Source: Clostridia bacterium (GTDB lineage: Bacteria > Bacillota > Peptococcia > DRI-13 > SV3-B141). Taken from it: 64,000 nt of DNA. Below are positions 27,495 to 36,000 of the stretch, piece after piece. Location of the stretch: positions 742-64,741 of the forward strand of contig JAHDSB010000077.1 of assembly GCA_018433015.1 (NCBI GenBank), written 5' to 3'. Made by a program: the position numbers and the translations under genes. Numbering within the stretch: the first letter of the stretch is position 1; each line of letters opens with the position of its first letter. The notes under the pieces are model-generated. The model saw only the letters and a list, made by a program, of their open reading frames with translations. It had not been told where the DNA came from and made no database searches.

Positions 27495-27959
27495 TTAATC
27501 TTGCCAGGCAAGTCTCACTTGAGCTACCTTATTTCTGGGAACAGATAACTCTTCACCGTCCTCTAAATATAAAACTAGATTTTCTTCATTAACGGGTCCT
27601 AGTTTCCCTTTAATTACTTTACTTCCATTAATAGGTGCATAAGTATGTACATTAACTAAAGCCTCTTGGAACCTCACAAAATCTTTTTCTCTAAATAAAA
27701 TACGTTCAATACCGGGTGATGATACTTCAAGAAAATAAGCTTGTGAGATAGGATCTTTTTCATCTAACAAATCGGAAAGTACTGTGCTTACAGCTTGACA
27801 ATCATCCAGGTCGACTCCATCTTCTTTATCTATATAAATTCTTAGATACCAGTTCGCCCCCTCCTTAACAAATTCGACAGCCACCAGTTCCATATCCATA
27901 CTTTCTACAACAGGCTCAGCCAGATTATAGACTATATCATGAATTTTCTCTCCCTGCAT
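27495..27959 (-). CDS. rimP: ribosome maturation factor RimP
   Basis: LEVSSPGIERIL motif; AAGGAGG SD. Confidence 0.9.
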   Translation of the reverse strand: MQGEKIHDIVYNLAEPVVESMDMELVAVEFVKEGANWYLRIYIDKEDGVDLDDCQAVSTVLSDLLDEKDPISQAYFLEVSSPGIERILFREKDFVRFQEALVNVHTYAPINGSKVIKGKLGPVNEENLVLYLEDGEELSVPRNKVAQVRLAWQD

Positions 27960-28013
27960 GCACAGGCCTCCTTAGTGTATTTTACTTATATTTTTCTCAA
28001 AAACCCGCCTGTA

Positions 28014-28047
28014 ATATAAATGAAAGAGTGGGTTTTTTTCCCACTCT
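28014..28047 (-). terminator. rho-independent terminator after polC
   Basis: Stem AGAGTGGG/CCCACTCT (8 bp, A7 loop) followed by TTCATTTAT. Confidence 0.75.
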
Positions 28048-28120
28048 CGCTGTACTAAAACGTCGGATTGCATGATTGTTACCCTTTACAGTCTAACACA
28101 TCGGATTAACACTTGGCAAG

Positions 28121-28141
28121 TTTTATCCAATAGCTAACCAC
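28121..28141. repeat. 21-nt exact repeat, copy B (immediately 3' of the polC stop codon)
   Basis: Plus strand TTTTATCCAATAGCTAACCAC, identical to 18962..18982. It abuts the polC TAG (28142..28144). Confidence 0.9.
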
Positions 28142-31100
28142 CTAAAACAAGGAGATTTGATCATTTTCAGGTAAATCTCGTAAACTCCCATGATGATCAA
28201 GAACTTCAATTACTGTCTTGCTTATTTTTGCCCTCACCCGTAAATCCTCGCAGGATGTAAACCTTTTTTCTTCCCGGGCCTTTACTATGCTCACTGCCGC
28301 TGCCTGACCTAACCCTTGTAAAGAACCGAGAGGAGGCAAGAGGGCTTTCCCATCGTCAACTATTAAAAAGCGGGTAGCATCAGAGGAAAACAAGTCAACA
28401 TGTTTTAGAGTAATATTTCTTAAATGCATTTCTAAAGCCAATTCCAAAATGCTATACAGGTTTTTTTCTTTTTGGGAGGCTTCATTTCCTTTTTTCGCTA
28501 TTTCCTCCATTTCCCGTTTTATGGAGGAGATACCACCCACTACGATGTCTGCATCAAATTCATCAGCCCTTACAGTAAAGAAGCTAGCATAGAAAGCAGC
28601 AGGATAATAAACCTTAAAATAAGCGATTCGGAAAGCCATCATTACATAAGCTACAGCATGGGCTTTAGGAAACATGTATTTAATCTTTTGACAAGATTCT
28701 ATATACCAGCCAGGTACATCATGTTCTTTCATGATTTCTATATTTTCCGGCAATAAGCCTTTTCCCTTACGAACTCTTTCCATTATTTTAAAAGCTTGAC
28801 TAGGTTCAACACCTTTTTGAATTAAAAACAGCATAATATCGTCACGAGCTGATATAACCTCCGACATTTTAGCTGTACCTGATTTAATAAGATCCTGGGC
28901 ATTGTTTAACCACACATTAGTTCCGTGAGAGAAACCACTGATCCGAACCAACTCGGAAAAATTCTGGGGCTTAGTGTCTTCCAACATCTGTCGAACAAAT
29001 TTAGTGCCAAACTCTGGAATTCCTAACGTTCCTACCTTACTTCCCAAGTCTTCACTACTAATTCCTAAGGCATCCAGACCTAAGAATAATGATAATACCT
29101 TACTTTCATCTAATGGTATGGTCTTACAATCTACTCCCGTCAAGTCTTCCAGCATTTTAATTACTGTAGGATCATCATGGCCCAAAATATCTAATTTGAC
29201 GAGACGGCTAGAAATAGAATGATAATCAAAATGAGTAGTTATTATTTCCGATTTAACGTCATCAGCTGGTCTCTGCAACGGTGTGAATTTATGGATATCT
29301 AACCCCTTAGGCAATACCATAACCCCACCGGGGTGCTGCCCTGTAGTGCGTTTAACCCCTGTACATCCATCCACAAGGCGTTGTACTTCGGCACTTTTAA
29401 TGACTTGTTCCTTCTCGGCATAATAACTTTTAACAAAGCCATAGGCCGTCTTATTAGCAATAGTCGCTATTGTACCGGCCCGGAAAACATTATCTACTCC
29501 AAATAATTCCTCGGTATATTTATGAGCACAAGGCTGGTAATCTCCGGAAAAATTCAAATCAATATCTGGTACCTTATCACCTTTAAAACCGAGGAAAACT
29601 TCAAAAGGTATATCGTGCCCCTCTTTGCGCAATTTGGCTCCACACTCAGGGCATTCTCTATCGGGTAAATCTGCCCCTGAGCCCACAGAACCATCTGTAA
29701 TAAACTTACTATAATGACAGTTGGGACAAAGATAGTGTGGTGGTAGGGGATTAACCTCAGTGATATCACTAAAGGTAGCAACTAAAGAAGAACCAACGGA
29801 TCCTCGAGATCCTACCAGATATCCATCTTCATTGGAGTGTTTTACTAATTTATGAGCAATTAAATATAATACGGCAAAACCATTATTAATTATAGAATTC
29901 AGTTCTTTATCAATTCTTTGCTGTACAATATCAGGCAAAGTATCGCCATACAGATTATGTGCGTTTGTTTTTGTTAATCTAATAATTTCCTCTTCCGCAC
30001 CGGGAATCTCAGGAGGATAGAGTTCATCAGGAATAGGTTTAATTTCCCCGTCAACCAAGGCTGCGATCTTTTGCGGATTTGTAATAACAACTTCCTTCGC
30101 CGCATCTTCTCCTAGGTAAGCGAATTCCTCCAACATCTCTTCTGTAGTCTTAAAATAAAGAGGTGCCTGATTATCAGCATCATCAAAACCTTTACCGGCC
30201 ATAAGAATACGACGATATATTTCATCTTCCGGGTCTAAAAAATGGACATCTCCTGTAGCTACTACAGGCTTGTTCAATTTTTGACCTAATTCATATATTT
30301 TTTTATTTATTGTCAACAAATCTTCTTCACTATTGACAATACCTTTATTTATCATGAAAGTATTATTCCCACGGGGCTGTATTTCTAAGTAATCATAAAA
30401 CTCCGCAATTTTTTCCCATTTTTCCTGATCAATTCCTTTTAGATAATAACGGATCAATTCCCCCGCTTCACAAGCAGAGCCAATCAACAATCCTTTTCTC
30501 AGTTTATTTAATTCACTCTTGGGTATTCTGGGTACTCGATAATAGTGATGTAAATGAGATAAGGTTACTAATTCATACAAATTGCGCAGTCCTTCTTGAT
30601 TTAAGGCTAAGATAATAACGTGATATGTAGGTACTTTTCGCCCTTCATGCTGTTCCTGATCATTATAGAGATATCCTTCCACACCAAAAATGGGTTTAAC
30701 ACCATTTTTCTTCGCTGCTTCATAAGCCTCCGGGAAAGCCTGAACCACACCATGGTCAGTAATAGCTAACGCTTCATGTCCCCACTCCCGGGCTCGCTTG
30801 AAGATGTCCTTGATACCTGTCAAAGCATCCAAAGCACTCATCTTAGTATGCAAATGAAGCTCCACACGTTTTTCCTGAGCAGTATCCTTTCTGGTAGTAA
30901 TAATAGTTTCCATAATATCATAAGGCATAAGGGTCAGTTCCTGACTATACCTATCATACTGGAGAGGCCCCCTAAATAAATACCAGTTATTTTCAACCAA
31001 TCTTTCTTGCAACTTTTCCGCCAAATCTCCATCAGCCCATATTTTACATGTTAACGAATCTGTCTTATCACAAATAAAAAAGGTAACTAATATGCGGCCT

Positions 31101-31852
31101 GTCTTTAGCGTTCTAAACTCCAGATTAAATACATACCCTCGTACTGTTACACTCTTCTCCTCATCCAGTAGAGTTTTAATTTCTTGGGGGCCTCCTGTTA
31201 TCTTTTTGCCCGTTATAACGTCGGATACTGCAGGACTTTGCATAAGCTTTTCTTTTTTCTTCTTAACGATACTTTCTTTAAAAAGCTCTGCATAGTTATT
31301 CTCTATCTCTTGTAATTCCTTACAGTCCTCTCCCTCTTCTTCCTTCCAGGTTATTTGGACTTGAACATCCAACTGATAATTTTTTTCTAATAATGTCTCC
31401 AGTTGATTAATTATTCCATGGGATGTTAAATAGGCCCATCCTATTTCTTGTTTTACAATAATCTGTAGTAAATTATCAGTCACTTCATATGAGGCACCTG
31501 CCAACCATCCACGGCAACTTGGAATCATTCTACATAAACTTGCAATAATCTCTTGTTCTCTCTGTTTCCAAAGGCTTTTTAAATTAGAATACTTATTAGC
31601 AAGGGTAAAATGAAACCTTGTATTACACTCTGCACCAAACAAATCTCTCCAAAATTTCGTGAGATACTTATAAATATCATCTTCTGGCTTTTGGGAACTA
31701 GCAAAATATATTTCCCAAGCCTTATCAGCCTGGGAAATTAGAATCTTCGTTATTTTACAATGTAATAAATATTCCTTGATTGGTTTAGGCAGGGTCGAAG
31801 ATACCAGGGCCTGTTGCCAAAGCATTAGCCTGTTGTTATTGTCAATAGCCAC
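28142..31852 (-). CDS. polC: DNA polymerase III PolC-type alpha subunit, exonuclease-domain-less variant (1236 aa)
   Basis: OB fold; PHP motifs HLHT/TDH/GVEGY/YHV/GSAC/TGDVHF; Zn finger CPNC..CPEC; palm PDIDLNFSGD; C-terminal QISLF. Only 10 residues (QEQHEGRKVP) lie where the DnaQ-like exonuclease normally sits. Confidence 0.93.
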   Translation of the reverse strand: MAIDNNNRLMLWQQALVSSTLPKPIKEYLLHCKITKILISQADKAWEIYFASSQKPEDDIYKYLTKFWRDLFGAECNTRFHFTLANKYSNLKSLWKQREQEIIASLCRMIPSCRGWLAGASYEVTDNLLQIIVKQEIGWAYLTSHGIINQLETLLEKNYQLDVQVQITWKEEEGEDCKELQEIENNYAELFKESIVKKKKEKLMQSPAVSDVITGKKITGGPQEIKTLLDEEKSVTVRGYVFNLEFRTLKTGRILVTFFICDKTDSLTCKIWADGDLAEKLQERLVENNWYLFRGPLQYDRYSQELTLMPYDIMETIITTRKDTAQEKRVELHLHTKMSALDALTGIKDIFKRAREWGHEALAITDHGVVQAFPEAYEAAKKNGVKPIFGVEGYLYNDQEQHEGRKVPTYHVIILALNQEGLRNLYELVTLSHLHHYYRVPRIPKSELNKLRKGLLIGSACEAGELIRYYLKGIDQEKWEKIAEFYDYLEIQPRGNNTFMINKGIVNSEEDLLTINKKIYELGQKLNKPVVATGDVHFLDPEDEIYRRILMAGKGFDDADNQAPLYFKTTEEMLEEFAYLGEDAAKEVVITNPQKIAALVDGEIKPIPDELYPPEIPGAEEEIIRLTKTNAHNLYGDTLPDIVQQRIDKELNSIINNGFAVLYLIAHKLVKHSNEDGYLVGSRGSVGSSLVATFSDITEVNPLPPHYLCPNCHYSKFITDGSVGSGADLPDRECPECGAKLRKEGHDIPFEVFLGFKGDKVPDIDLNFSGDYQPCAHKYTEELFGVDNVFRAGTIATIANKTAYGFVKSYYAEKEQVIKSAEVQRLVDGCTGVKRTTGQHPGGVMVLPKGLDIHKFTPLQRPADDVKSEIITTHFDYHSISSRLVKLDILGHDDPTVIKMLEDLTGVDCKTIPLDESKVLSLFLGLDALGISSEDLGSKVGTLGIPEFGTKFVRQMLEDTKPQNFSELVRISGFSHGTNVWLNNAQDLIKSGTAKMSEVISARDDIMLFLIQKGVEPSQAFKIMERVRKGKGLLPENIEIMKEHDVPGWYIESCQKIKYMFPKAHAVAYVMMAFRIAYFKVYYPAAFYASFFTVRADEFDADIVVGGISSIKREMEEIAKKGNEASQKEKNLYSILELALEMHLRNITLKHVDLFSSDATRFLIVDDGKALLPPLGSLQGLGQAAAVSIVKAREEKRFTSCEDLRVRAKISKTVIEVLDHHGSLRDLPENDQISLF

Positions 31853-31863
31853 TGTTACACCCC

Positions 31864-32541
31864 CTACTGTCCTGTTGATACTTGATATACGCCCTTTATC
31901 TTACTAACTTTCTCTATTATTTCTTCCAAATCATGATTGTAAGGTACTATCACAGTGATAACTAGCTTAAGACGGTTAGAACTGCCCATACCACTCATTT
32001 CTAAATTACGAATATGAACATCTAATTCACCTAAAGAAGAAGTAACTATTCCTAATTGTCCCGGTTTATCTTCTACAGTAAGATGGAGTTTTTTTTGTTT
32101 ATCATGAGACAATCGGAGACGATTCTCAAATTTCGTCATATAAACTAGTACTAAAAAAACTATTCCCGTTGTTATTATTGCTGTAAAGTAACTGCCCATC
32201 CCCACGGCCAAGCCAATTCCTGCTACGACCCACAGAGAAGCAGCCGTAGTTAACCCTTTAACTCCAAAGCCGGATCGAATGATGGTACCGGCACCCAAAA
32301 AACCTATCCCGCTTACAACTTGGGCTGCGATGCGACCTGGGTCAGCTGTATTGGTATAACCTACATTTTGATACATTTCTATGGATGTCATCATAATTAA
32401 ACAAGAGCCCAAGCACACAAGGGTATGTGTACGAAAGCCCGCAGATTTGTTTAAGCTCTCTCGCTCTAAGCCAATTACTGCACCTAATATGGCTGCTAAA
32501 AATAAACGTATTGCTGCAATCCCTTCATAACTCACGTACAA
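31864..32541 (-). CDS. MgtC/SapB-family membrane protein with C-terminal ACT-like domain
   Basis: AAILGAVIGLERE...GFRTHTLVCLGS...GLTTAASLW motifs of the MgtC family. TTG start 5 nt after GGGAGGG, 2 nt after the GT2 stop. Confidence 0.8.
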   Translation of the reverse strand: MYVSYEGIAAIRLFLAAILGAVIGLERESLNKSAGFRTHTLVCLGSCLIMMTSIEMYQNVGYTNTADPGRIAAQVVSGIGFLGAGTIIRSGFGVKGLTTAASLWVVAGIGLAVGMGSYFTAIITTGIVFLVLVYMTKFENRLRLSHDKQKKLHLTVEDKPGQLGIVTSSLGELDVHIRNLEMSGMGSSNRLKLVITVIVPYNHDLEEIIEKVSKIKGVYQVSTGQ

Positions 32542-32543
32542 AA

Positions 32544-33176
32544 CTACCCTCCCATACGTACATTTTTAGCTATCTCCCAGTACATTTTCAAGCGGTAAGT
32601 AAAGCCCCGTATTAAACCTAATTTTTCTTCTTTCATAACGTGGGACATATCTGCTAAATGTACTTCTTTTATTCTTAGGTTATGTTCATGGGCAAAATGT
32701 GTTAACGCCGTTTCCACACCGAATCCAGTTTTAGCCAGATCTTTTATTTCATAAAGCCATTTTTTCTTAATACAACGCTGACCAGATAAAAAAGGAGTCA
32801 GGACTTGAGCAAAATCCGTAGCTAAACGTCCATGTTCAAAAATGCCAATGGTCATATCAGCCTCATCATTGAGTACTGGCATTATCATATTCTGCACATG
32901 GACTTCTGTTAACCCTATTAAATCCCCATCTAAAAAAAGTATTATTTCTTCCCGGGCCTTCTCTACACCGACGGCCATGGCGCCTCCCTTACCGATATTC
33001 TCTGACAAGGGAATCACTTGTACACCGCACTTTTCTGCAACCTGAATTGTATCATCAGTAGAACCATCACTTACAACAATAATTTGAGATATCTCTTTCA
33101 GCTTTTTCAAAGGTTCTAAAACGCCTGCTAAATATTTTTCTTCATTGTAAGCCGGGATAACTACAGTTACCTTCAT
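32544..33176 (-). CDS. family-2 glycosyltransferase, short glucosyl-3-phosphoglycerate-synthase-like type (210 aa)
   Basis: VVIPAYNEE, VVSDGSTDDT and LDGDL (DxD) GT-A motifs. The SGQR...GFGVE segment resembles GpgS-like enzymes by eye. Confidence 0.78.
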   Translation of the reverse strand: MKVTVVIPAYNEEKYLAGVLEPLKKLKEISQIIVVSDGSTDDTIQVAEKCGVQVIPLSENIGKGGAMAVGVEKAREEIILFLDGDLIGLTEVHVQNMIMPVLNDEADMTIGIFEHGRLATDFAQVLTPFLSGQRCIKKKWLYEIKDLAKTGFGVETALTHFAHEHNLRIKEVHLADMSHVMKEEKLGLIRGFTYRLKMYWEIAKNVRMGG

Positions 33177-33215: not shown

Positions 33216-34922
33216 TTAGTATTTCTCAATGATGCCTTTTACATGTTCAATTATTTCATTTTTATTTATATAGCTAATCTCTGAGTCCTTACGCAGTTTA
33301 ACTTCCACTAACTCTTCACTTGCATATTTCTTACCTATAGTCAACCTAATGGGATAACCAATTAAATCCGCATCTTTAAATTTCACACCGGCTCTCTCAT
33401 CTCTATCGTCCAATACTACTTCCACTCCGGCTTTTTGTAATTCTTCATATAATGTTTGCGCACCTTGCCAGATTTCGGGGTCCTGGACTTTTACCGGTAC
33501 AACTACAACTTGATAAGGCGCTATGGACATAGGCCAAATTATCCCATGTTCATCATAGTTTTGTTCAACGGTAGCTGCCAGAGTTCTGCTGACACCTATG
33601 CCGTAACATCCCATGACCATAAGATTATCTTTCCCATTTTCATCCACATATTTAGCATTTAAAGCTTCACTATATTTTGTTCCTAGTTTGAAGACTTGTC
33701 CTACTTCAATACCTCGGGCCCAGTTTAACACTGCCTGACATTTAGGGCAGGTTTCGCCTTTCTCAATAAGCCTCAAGTCTGCATAGGTTGTCCTTGGGAA
33801 GTCACGCTCTGGTTGAACATTGATATAATGATAGTTTTCTTCATTTGCTCCACAAACACCATTAACCATGGTTTTTACTTCATTATCTGCATAAATCTTA
33901 ATTTGTTTCCCTAACTTAAGGGGACCTACATAGCCAGGCTCACAACCAGTTACTTCTTTGATTTGTTGAGCTGAGGCCATTTCTAGTGTTAACGAGGGAT
34001 GGACACGTTGCAGTTTTATTTCATTTATCGTTCTATCTCCCCGTACCAAGACGGCAATTATTTCGTCATCAGCCTGATAAAACAAAGTTTTAATAAGTTT
34101 TTGGGCAGGTACCTGCAAAAACTGAGAAACTTGCTCAATAGTAGTTTGACCAGGTGTGCTTATTTTTTCCATGTTTTTAGCAGGTTCCTCCCCATTGTCA
34201 CTAGGAACACAAAGAGCAATTTCTACGTTAGCAGCATAATCACATTCCGGACAGTAAACAATCTCCGCTTCTCCTGAATCGGCAATAACCATGAACTCGT
34301 GGGTATCACTACCTCCGATAGCCCCAGAATCAGCCTCCACAGGACGGAATTTCAAACCGCAGCGAGTGAATATAGCAGTATATGCATCATACATTTTTTG
34401 ATAACTAACATCCAATCCCGCTTCGTCTTTATCAAAAGAGTACAAATCCTTCATAATAAACTCCCGGCCGCGCATCAAACCAAAACGTGGTCTCCGTTCA
34501 TCCCTATATTTATTCTGCATTTGATAAAGGAGTAATGGCAGTTGGCGATATGAATAAACATCTCCTCTTACTAAATCAGTAATTATTTCTTCATGGGTAG
34601 GTCCTAAACAAAAGTCCCGATCATGACGATCTTTTAAGCGAAATAACTCTTTGCCGTAAACATGCCAGCGTCCCGATTCCAACCACAGCTCAGCAGGTTG
34701 AATAACAGGCAGCATTATCTCCTGTCCTCCGGCCTTATTCATTTCTTCCCGCACTATAGCAGATATCTTCTGCAGTACTCTCTGCGCCAAGGTTAAATAT
34801 GTATAAACACCGGAGGAGGATTTACGAATAAACCCTCCTCTCAGCAGCAATTTATGGCTCACTACTTCTGCCTCAGCAGGTGTTTCCCGTAAAGTAGGTG
34901 CATACAATTTACTAAAATACAT
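33216..34922 (-). CDS. proS: proline--tRNA ligase (bacterial type with editing insertion)
   Basis: [29 protein letters not shown]-terminus, class II motifs. ATG at 34922 has GAAGGAG 9 nt upstream; the track TTG at 34943 lies inside ispG. Confidence 0.95.
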
Positions 34923-34926
34923 AAGT

Positions 34927-36000
34927 TCATACTCCTTCTGCAATATATTTTTGTATTTCTTCCCATAATGCCTCTACCAAGGCATCTTCCGGTACCTTTT
35001 TAATAACTTTCCCTTTAACAAAAACCAATCCTTCCCCTTTACCACCGGCAATCCCCAGATCTGCTTCTCGGGCTTCTCCCGGCCCATTTACAGCACATCC
35101 CATAACGGCCACAGTTAGGGGGACATTTAAATCAGCCACTTTTTCTTCAACGGCTTTAGCAATAGGGTATAAATCTATCTGGGTTCGTCCACAAGTGGGA
35201 CAAGATATAACATCTACACCTTTTTTTCGTAATCCCAATGTTCTTAGAATAACTTTCGCGGCCTTTACCTCAGGAAGAGGATCCCCTGTTAATGAAACCC
35301 TAATAGTATCACCTATTCCTTCGGCTAATAAGGTGCCAATACCTACAGCTGATTTTATGCTACCGTTTTCTCCCAATCCGGCTTCCGTTACTCCTAAATG
35401 GAAAGGGTAAGAAACTTTCTCCGCCATAATCCGATAAGCTTCAATCATAAGGGGCACATGGGAAGCTTTAAGAGATATCTTGATAAGATCAAAATTTAGA
35501 TCTTCTAAAATACTGATATGCTGCAAAGCACTTTCCACCATAGCAGGGGCTGTTACACCCCGATACTTTTCCAACAGCGTTTTATCTAATGACCCGCTAT
35601 TTACACCAATACGAATCGGAACCGCCTTATCCTGAGCTTTTTTTACAACTTCCCGTACTTTCCAAGCTGCCCCTATATTTCCTGGGTTTAATCTTAGACC
35701 ATGTACCCCATTATCCAGGGCTTTTATGGCCAGTTTATAATCAAAATGTATATCAGCAATTACTGGTATTGGGGATCCTTGTACAACCTTAGCTACTGCT
35801 TCTGCGGCCTCATTATCGGGTATGGCCACACGTATAATTTCACATCCATCAGCAGCTAACTGTTTAATTTGGGTTAAAGTAGCCTCTACATCACAAGTAT
35901 CCGTATTAGTCATAGACTGAATAGAAATAGGATGTAAATGGCCTACCCCCACATCTCCCACCAGAAAATTCTTGGTGACACGTCGCTTGATATCTTGCAT
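34927..36000 (-). CDS. ispG: 4-hydroxy-3-methylbut-2-en-1-yl diphosphate synthase
   Basis: [18 protein letters not shown] and [10 protein letters not shown] motifs. Confidence 0.95.

Follow-up and report, generated by a model that had tools for sequence, protein, structure and literature searches.

Textbooks characterise PolC by a DEDDh (DnaQ-like) exonuclease inserted in its PHP domain, and this insert is the known proofreader of the enzyme. The polC gene of a Clostridia bacterium (GenBank assembly GCA_018433015.1) raises the question of what becomes of proofreading when this insert is missing, and whether such a PolC is still the replicase of its chromosome. The gene lies in a 64-kb stretch of contig JAHDSB010000077.1 (64,000 nucleotides, positions 742 to 64,741 of the forward strand), referred to here as the window. 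A preliminary interpretation of the same letters (the sequence-only reading) had described the open reading frame (ORF) correctly, including its extent and continuity, and left unstated that it is encoded on the minus strand. It had further claimed that the product lacks an intrinsic DnaQ-like exonuclease, and it had named profile alignment, structural superposition and a survey of polC lengths as checks; the results of all three are in line with this claim.

This protein lacks the DnaQ-like domain found within PHP in canonical PolC. RNase_T (PF00929) was not detected in the polC product in a Pfam search at an E value of ≤1, and regular expressions for the Exo I, II and III motifs had no match in it. 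The PolC profile PRK00448 aligns in two stretches, the second of which places protein residues 402 to 1236 on profile positions 607 to 1445; because this stretch starts at position 607, about 200 profile positions (approximately 410 to 606) are skipped. The product was also aligned with 120 homologues using MAFFT, and comparison with the 29 exonuclease-containing relatives among them reveals a single clean gap of 196 columns after residue 400, inside PHP. A custom hidden Markov model (HMM) built from the exonuclease domains of these 29 relatives, when run on all six frames of the window, gave no match in any frame (best E value, 1.5). Hidden or degenerate exonuclease motifs were considered separately and were ruled out by the regular expressions, the Pfam search at the same threshold and the custom HMM. 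Among sequences of the Protein Data Bank, the product aligns in one piece to 3F2B over residues 224 to 1236 and in two pieces to the full-length PolC 9QPC. At the site of the insert the PHP halves are joined by the short linker QEQHEGRKVP, the sequence of which varies among homologues, while its flanks are conserved. The sequence-only reading gave the linker sequence correctly but placed it at 30628..30657, one base off its actual position (30629..30658).

Structural prediction is consistent with a clean junction. In an AlphaFold2 model of residues 215 to 640 (mean predicted local distance difference test score, 90.2), a strand ending in GVEGYLY is followed by a 13-residue loop and a second strand, YHVIILA. 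The PHP halves are thus predicted to be connected via a short surface loop, with the PHP barrel modelled as intact. Superposition of the model on 3F2B, a PolC construct without the exonuclease, gave a template modelling (TM) score of 0.80 over 423 alignment columns. Superposition on 9QPC gave a TM score of 0.85 over 624 columns, the approximately 200 extra columns being the exonuclease domain of 9QPC.

The same architecture is common among relatives. The 120 best protein homologues are sharply bimodal in length: 91 have ≤1,255 residues and no PF00929, and 29 have ≥1,409 residues and carry it. Among the shorter proteins is one of 99% identity found in a separate assembly collection. The closest named species, the cultured Thermanaerosceptrum fracticalcis (Peptococcaceae, Clostridia), has an exonuclease-less PolC of 70% identity. 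A genome scan based on tblastn matches, with one genome per species, found the exonuclease-less form in 76 of the 80 best loci, spanning Peptococcia, the Desulfosporosinus group, Negativicutes and Syntrophomonadaceae. Complete genomes encoding this form include those of Sporomusa acidovorans, S. malonica, S. ovata, S. silvacetica and S. aerivorans, and it is also found in Pelosinus, Anaerospora, Propionispora, Anaerovibrio lipolyticus, Desulfosporosinus fructosivorans, Paradesulfitobacterium ferrireducens and metagenome-assembled genomes (MAGs) of Syntrophomonas. Collapse or deletion of a segment of approximately 590 bp during assembly or sequencing is an a priori possibility for any metagenome assembly, and nothing beyond this speaks for it. 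The reading frame is intact and its flanks are conserved, the PHP domain is predicted to fold completely, with its short loop modelled well, and an identical architecture is present in >160 independent sequences, closed isolate genomes included. Its occurrence across so many homologues and closed genomes excludes an artefact for practical purposes, and we regard the probability of one as negligible.

Two groups within this sample require comment. The polC frames of Anaerovibrio (loci L059, L062 to L064, L069, L070, L072, L073, L075 and L078) extend for 1,275 to 1,322 codons from stop to stop, yet lack the exonuclease domain. Their tblastn matches start at query residues 197 to 210 in nine of the 10 loci and at residue 34 in L062, and their N-terminal region appears to be extended and to have diverged beyond alignment with the N-terminal domain of the query. 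In addition, two exonuclease-less PolCs of about 1,230 residues (P0119 and L004) are labelled “MAG: Desulfitobacterium hafniense” or “Desulfitobacterium sp.” The cultured D. hafniense DCB-2 and D. dehalogenans, however, each have a single PolC of 1,446 to 1,447 residues with the exonuclease (PMC3919608, supplementary table). Because the MAG labels clash with these cultured strains, the genus Desulfitobacterium is not claimed here as exonuclease-less; either the labels are loose or both PolC forms occur in Desulfitobacteriaceae.

The variant has been described before. Timinskas et al. (NAR 2014; PMC3919608) found the exonuclease insertion missing in 6% of PolCs, all of them in Clostridia or Negativicutes apart from one, an additional copy in a Thermotogae genome. 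Clostridia and Negativicutes with such a PolC pair it with DnaE1, and 16% of the PolCs in PolC-plus-DnaE1 systems lack the domain (PMC3919608). An example from their supplement is the PolC of Acidaminococcus fermentans (YP_003399045; 1,191 residues), which has the domain order NTD+OB+PHP+Pol3+HhH (N-terminal domain, OB fold, PHP, polymerase core and helix-hairpin-helix) and all nine PHP ligands (HHDHEHCDH), in a genome classed as PC+E1. The window PolC, from a clostridial host, has this same domain order with the PHP halves directly joined. It is therefore a further member of an already known and common variant, and its architecture is not new. The novelty implied by the sequence-only reading does not hold, because the form is both described (PMC3919608) and frequent in the clade. 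Its narrower statement, that no exonuclease-less PolC was known to have been characterised, stands to the extent that our literature search found no biochemistry of a natural one.

Is this gene nevertheless the replicase of the chromosome? The product belongs to the PolC-type DNA polymerase III alpha subunits: it scores 1,625.8 bits with the NCBIfam equivalog PRK00448 (NF001688; cutoff, 873) and 1,447 bits with TIGR01405 (cutoff, 1,043), and all DnaE models remain far under their own cutoffs. Pfam recognises the NI/NII, OB, PHP, Pol3 alpha, finger and HHH_6 regions, and the OB fold precedes PHP (which starts at residue 331), an order typical of PolC and unlike that of DnaE. The C-terminal limit of PHP was set by alignments to DnaE structures, which reach approximately residue 590. 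The motifs listed in the sequence-only reading are all present, including those of PHP (HLHT, residues 333 to 336; ITDH, 364 to 367; GVEGY, 390 to 394; YHVIILA, 410 to 416; GSAC, 458 to 461; TGDVHF, 533 to 538) and those of the Zn finger, palm and clamp-binding C terminus. The catalytic residues D763 and D765 are invariant in 121 of 121 sequences, and a QxxLF-type C terminus is kept in the sampled homologues. As the catalytic aspartates, Zn finger, helix-hairpin-helix domain and QISLF motif are all retained, these features suggest that synthesis would still be processive on the beta clamp.

Gene order bears on the same question. The sequence around polC is rseP-ispG-proS-glycosyltransferase-mgtC-polC-rimP-nusA-rnpM-ylxQ-infB, with rpsB-tsf-pyrH-frr-uppS-…-dxr farther upstream and truB-ribF-pnp-RNase J-ftsK-rimO downstream, which is the conserved Firmicute site of the replicative polC. 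This position argues against the copy in the window being a nonreplicative paralogue of a full-length, exonuclease-containing polC elsewhere in the genome. A precedent for such a paralogue exists in the one Thermotogae genome in which the exonuclease-less PolC is an additional copy (PMC3919608). The published table, however, lists only one clostridial genome with two PolCs, set against the 16% of exonuclease-less proteins in PolC-plus-DnaE1 systems, and Acidaminococcus genomes have the PC+E1 set with a single, exonuclease-less PolC (PMC3919608). Moreover, the 80 related loci all derive from different assemblies. A paralogue is accordingly very improbable, and we are confident, short of certainty, that this gene encodes the orthologous, functional PolC replicase of the chromosome in a naturally exonuclease-less NTD+OB+PHP+Pol3+HhH form.

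If so, proofreading has to come from elsewhere, and the sequence-only reading had suggested either a protein acting in trans or the PHP site. Both options are sensible, and the evidence favours the second. A PHP domain with a full ligand set can be a Zn-dependent 3'-5' exonuclease and is the proofreader of Mycobacterium tuberculosis DnaE1 (PMC5636811). The PHP metal site of the window PolC is, as the sequence-only reading had held, fully conserved: its nine ligands, in the pattern HHDHEHCDH (Table 1), are invariant in 163 of 163 exonuclease-less and 33 of 33 exonuclease-containing relatives (196 of 196). Their invariance in all of the exonuclease-less proteins makes PHP editing the most likely route. 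By analogy with M. tuberculosis DnaE1, PolC would carry out 3'-5' editing itself, at the trinuclear metal centre of its PHP domain. A partner polymerase, DnaE1, encoded elsewhere in the genome, probably shares replication, and the DnaE1 of this group also has an intact PHP site.

Four points weigh against this proposal. The 33 exonuclease-containing relatives keep the same ligands without exception, so that PHP conservation is not specific to loss of the DnaQ-like domain. A search for residues that separate exonuclease-less from exonuclease-containing PolCs, as a possible mark of PHP adaptation, yielded zero alignment columns, and there is consequently no sequence signature of compensation. 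The literature search found no activity report on a natural exonuclease-less PolC. Finally, dnaE1, a stand-alone DnaQ and a second polC were assessable in the window only, in which no second C-family polymerase is present. The proposal that PHP is the main PolC proofreader in this organism, drawn by analogy, is therefore given about an even chance.

The main proofreader might instead be a separate DnaQ-like (epsilon-type) exonuclease, with PHP having a structural or secondary role. On average, a bacterial proteome encodes more than three stand-alone homologues of DnaQ (PMC12926913). In mycobacteria a DnaQ provides a second proofreading activity besides that of PHP (PMC11348249), and in Escherichia coli the PHP domain of DnaE is the part that binds epsilon (PMC3919608). 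Against this, the window contains no DnaQ-like ORF (the best E value being that given above for the exonuclease HMM), and no ligand of the PHP metal site has been lost. A stand-alone DnaQ gene adjoining polC was also sought as a candidate in the 76 exonuclease-less loci and none was found within 6 kb, although such a gene may sit elsewhere in the genome. We consider proofreading mainly in trans rather unlikely.

Loss of the proofreader could also be tolerated if DnaE1 were the principal high-fidelity replicase and PolC were restricted to a limited or specialised role. This possibility was raised by Timinskas et al. (PMC3919608), who found exonuclease-less PolCs only where paired with DnaE1, a DnaE1 equipped with every feature expected of a self-sufficient replicase, and some Clostridia with DnaE1 only. 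The strong conservation of PolC (mean column identity of 64%, with catalytic, Zn-finger and PHP residues invariant and the clamp motif kept) and retention of the gene at its ancestral locus speak against a reduced role, and we regard it as unlikely.

PHP-based editing in a replicative PolC thus remains the preferred reading, and the distribution of the domain hints at how this state may have arisen. Neighbor-joining (NJ) trees with Kimura distances were built from 196 PolCs over 1,157 shared columns, with the exonuclease region removed and 100 bootstraps. Mapping presence and absence of the domain on these trees required three to five state changes in all 100 bootstrap replicates; in an earlier tree of 118 sequences, a clean bipartition was recovered in three of 100 bootstraps. 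The query falls together with Peptococcia and Negativicutes, and the exonuclease-less Desulfosporosinus/Paradesulfitobacterium group adjoins the exonuclease-containing Thermincola and Carboxydocella. Linker lengths are clade specific, with 9 to 11 residues in Negativicutes and Syntrophomonadaceae and 13 to 18 in Peptococcia and the Desulfosporosinus group. Together, the trees and linker lengths provide a hint that the domain was lost repeatedly. This is not relied upon, given the very short internal branches, the crudeness of the method and a weak outgroup.

Two placements on the NJ tree stand out. An exonuclease-less PolC of 1,237 residues (P0064) is nested within the exonuclease-containing Thermincola/Phosphitispora cluster, and an exonuclease-containing pair (L046 and P0055) lies beside an exonuclease-less Syntrophomonadaceae group (L049, L066, L068 and L074). 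Independent, recent loss events are possible in both cases. The broader proposal, that the PHP trinuclear centre is the sole intrinsic PolC proofreader in these lineages and that the DnaQ-like insert was lost several times independently, is tentative and somewhat doubtful. If true, the hallmark exonuclease of PolC would be dispensable given an active PHP site and a DnaE1 partner.

Features of the polC region are collected in Table 1.

Table 1. Coordinates of polC, its domains and motifs, and the adjoining genes in the window
Feature	Position	Strand	Residues	Remarks
polC ORF	28142..31852	minus	1236 aa + stop	PolC-type DNA polymerase III alpha subunit; GTG start; uninterrupted
PolC-specific N-terminal domain (NI/NII)	31232..31786	minus	~23-207	PF11490 at 100-207 (E 1.6e-7); PF14480 at 23-54, weak
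OB fold	30914..31150	minus	235-313	PF01336; beta-barrel strands in AlphaFold2 model
PHP domain, N-terminal half	30659..30862	minus	331-398	ligands H333, H335, D342, H367, E392
Linker QEQHEGRKVP	30629..30658	minus	399-408	ten residues; site of the ~196-residue DnaQ-like exonuclease of canonical PolC
PHP domain, C-terminal half	30083..30628	minus	409 to ~590	ligands H411, C461, D535, H537
Polymerase core (palm, thumb, fingers)	28760..29989	minus	622-1031	PF07733, PF17657
Zn finger CPNC…CPEC	29642..29728	minus	709-712 (CPNC), 734-737 (CPEC)	
Catalytic PDIDLNF	29549..29569	minus	762-768	
Tandem helix-hairpin-helix domain	28163..28414	minus	1147-1230	PF14579 (E 5.4e-11)
C-terminal beta-clamp-binding motif QISLF	28145..28159	minus	1232-1236	
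rimP	27495..27959	minus		directly downstream of polC; opens the rimP-nusA-rnpM-ylxQ-infB block found after polC in Firmicutes
MgtC/SapB-family gene	31864..32541			between proS and polC
Glycosyltransferase gene	32544..33176			between proS and polC
proS	33216..34943	minus		conserved upstream neighbour; two genes intervene before polC

In the classical Firmicute arrangement, proS immediately precedes polC. Here, the GTG start of polC lies 11 nt past the stop of mgtC, a spacing that suggests co-transcription or translational coupling. Most other junctions of the block are tight, and a 182-bp noncoding gap (27960..28141) extends from the polC stop to the rimP start; a terminator or promoter that sets polC apart from the rimP-nusA-infB operon may lie there. 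The order of assigned genes in the window is rimO, ygiQ, ftsK, RNase J, pnp, ribF, truB, infB, nusA, rimP, polC, proS, ispG, rseP, dxr, ytvI, uppS, frr, pyrH, tsf, rpsB and cheA. All family-assigned ORFs and all long ORFs are on the minus strand, and those on the plus strand are short (≤129 residues) and overlap minus-strand ORFs. Presence of the sporulation gene ytvI suggests that the organism is an endospore former. Rfam searches of the window at gathering thresholds detected no riboswitch, T-box leader (e.g., before proS), tRNA or other RNA family, which is slightly unexpected for a region of this size so rich in translation genes.

The value of this locus as a discovery is small, as the architecture has been known since 2013-14 and occurs widely across Negativicutes, Peptococcia, the Desulfosporosinus group and Syntrophomonadaceae. 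The residual question is the fidelity of PolC-plus-DnaE1 replisomes in which PolC has no DEDDh exonuclease. With its intact, perfect PHP site, and as the natural counterpart of an engineered exonuclease deletion, the window PolC is a natural test case for PHP proofreading in the PolC branch. In practical terms, the exonuclease domain should not be assumed in PolC annotation, modelling or inhibitor targeting in these clades.

Comparison with known systems places the protein precisely. It shares with canonical PolC (Bacillus subtilis, Staphylococcus aureus and structure 9QPC) the N-terminal domain, OB fold, split PHP, polymerase core, Zn finger, helix-hairpin-helix domain and clamp motif, as well as the genomic neighbourhood, except for the two extra genes between proS and polC, but the DEDDh exonuclease of approximately 196 residues within PHP is absent. 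The Geobacillus kaustophilus PolC delta-N delta-Exo protein (3F2B/3F2C) likewise has its PHP halves joined by a short linker. That construct is man-made, however, with the exonuclease swapped for a short Gly-Ser linker and the N-terminal domain missing, whereas the window PolC lacks the exonuclease by nature and retains its N-terminal domain. M. tuberculosis DnaE1 belongs to another branch of the C family and has its OB fold on the opposite side; both proteins nevertheless have a nine-residue trinuclear PHP metal site, and neither is fused to a DEDD exonuclease. The PHP domain of the mycobacterial enzyme has demonstrated exonuclease activity (PMC5636811); such activity is proposed by analogy for the window PolC, which carries the ligand set HHDHEH[C/H]DH that characterises PHP-proofreading replicases (M. 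tuberculosis DnaE1 and Thermus thermophilus Pol III alpha). The closest match is with the exonuclease-less PolCs of Clostridia and Negativicutes (PMC3919608), which have the same domain order, lack the exonuclease and keep nine of nine PHP ligands and the QxxLF C terminus. The window PolC, of clostridial lineage, shows no architectural difference from these proteins, and it is distinguished from those of Negativicutes by a linker of 15 residues, rather than 9 to 11, between GYL and YH.

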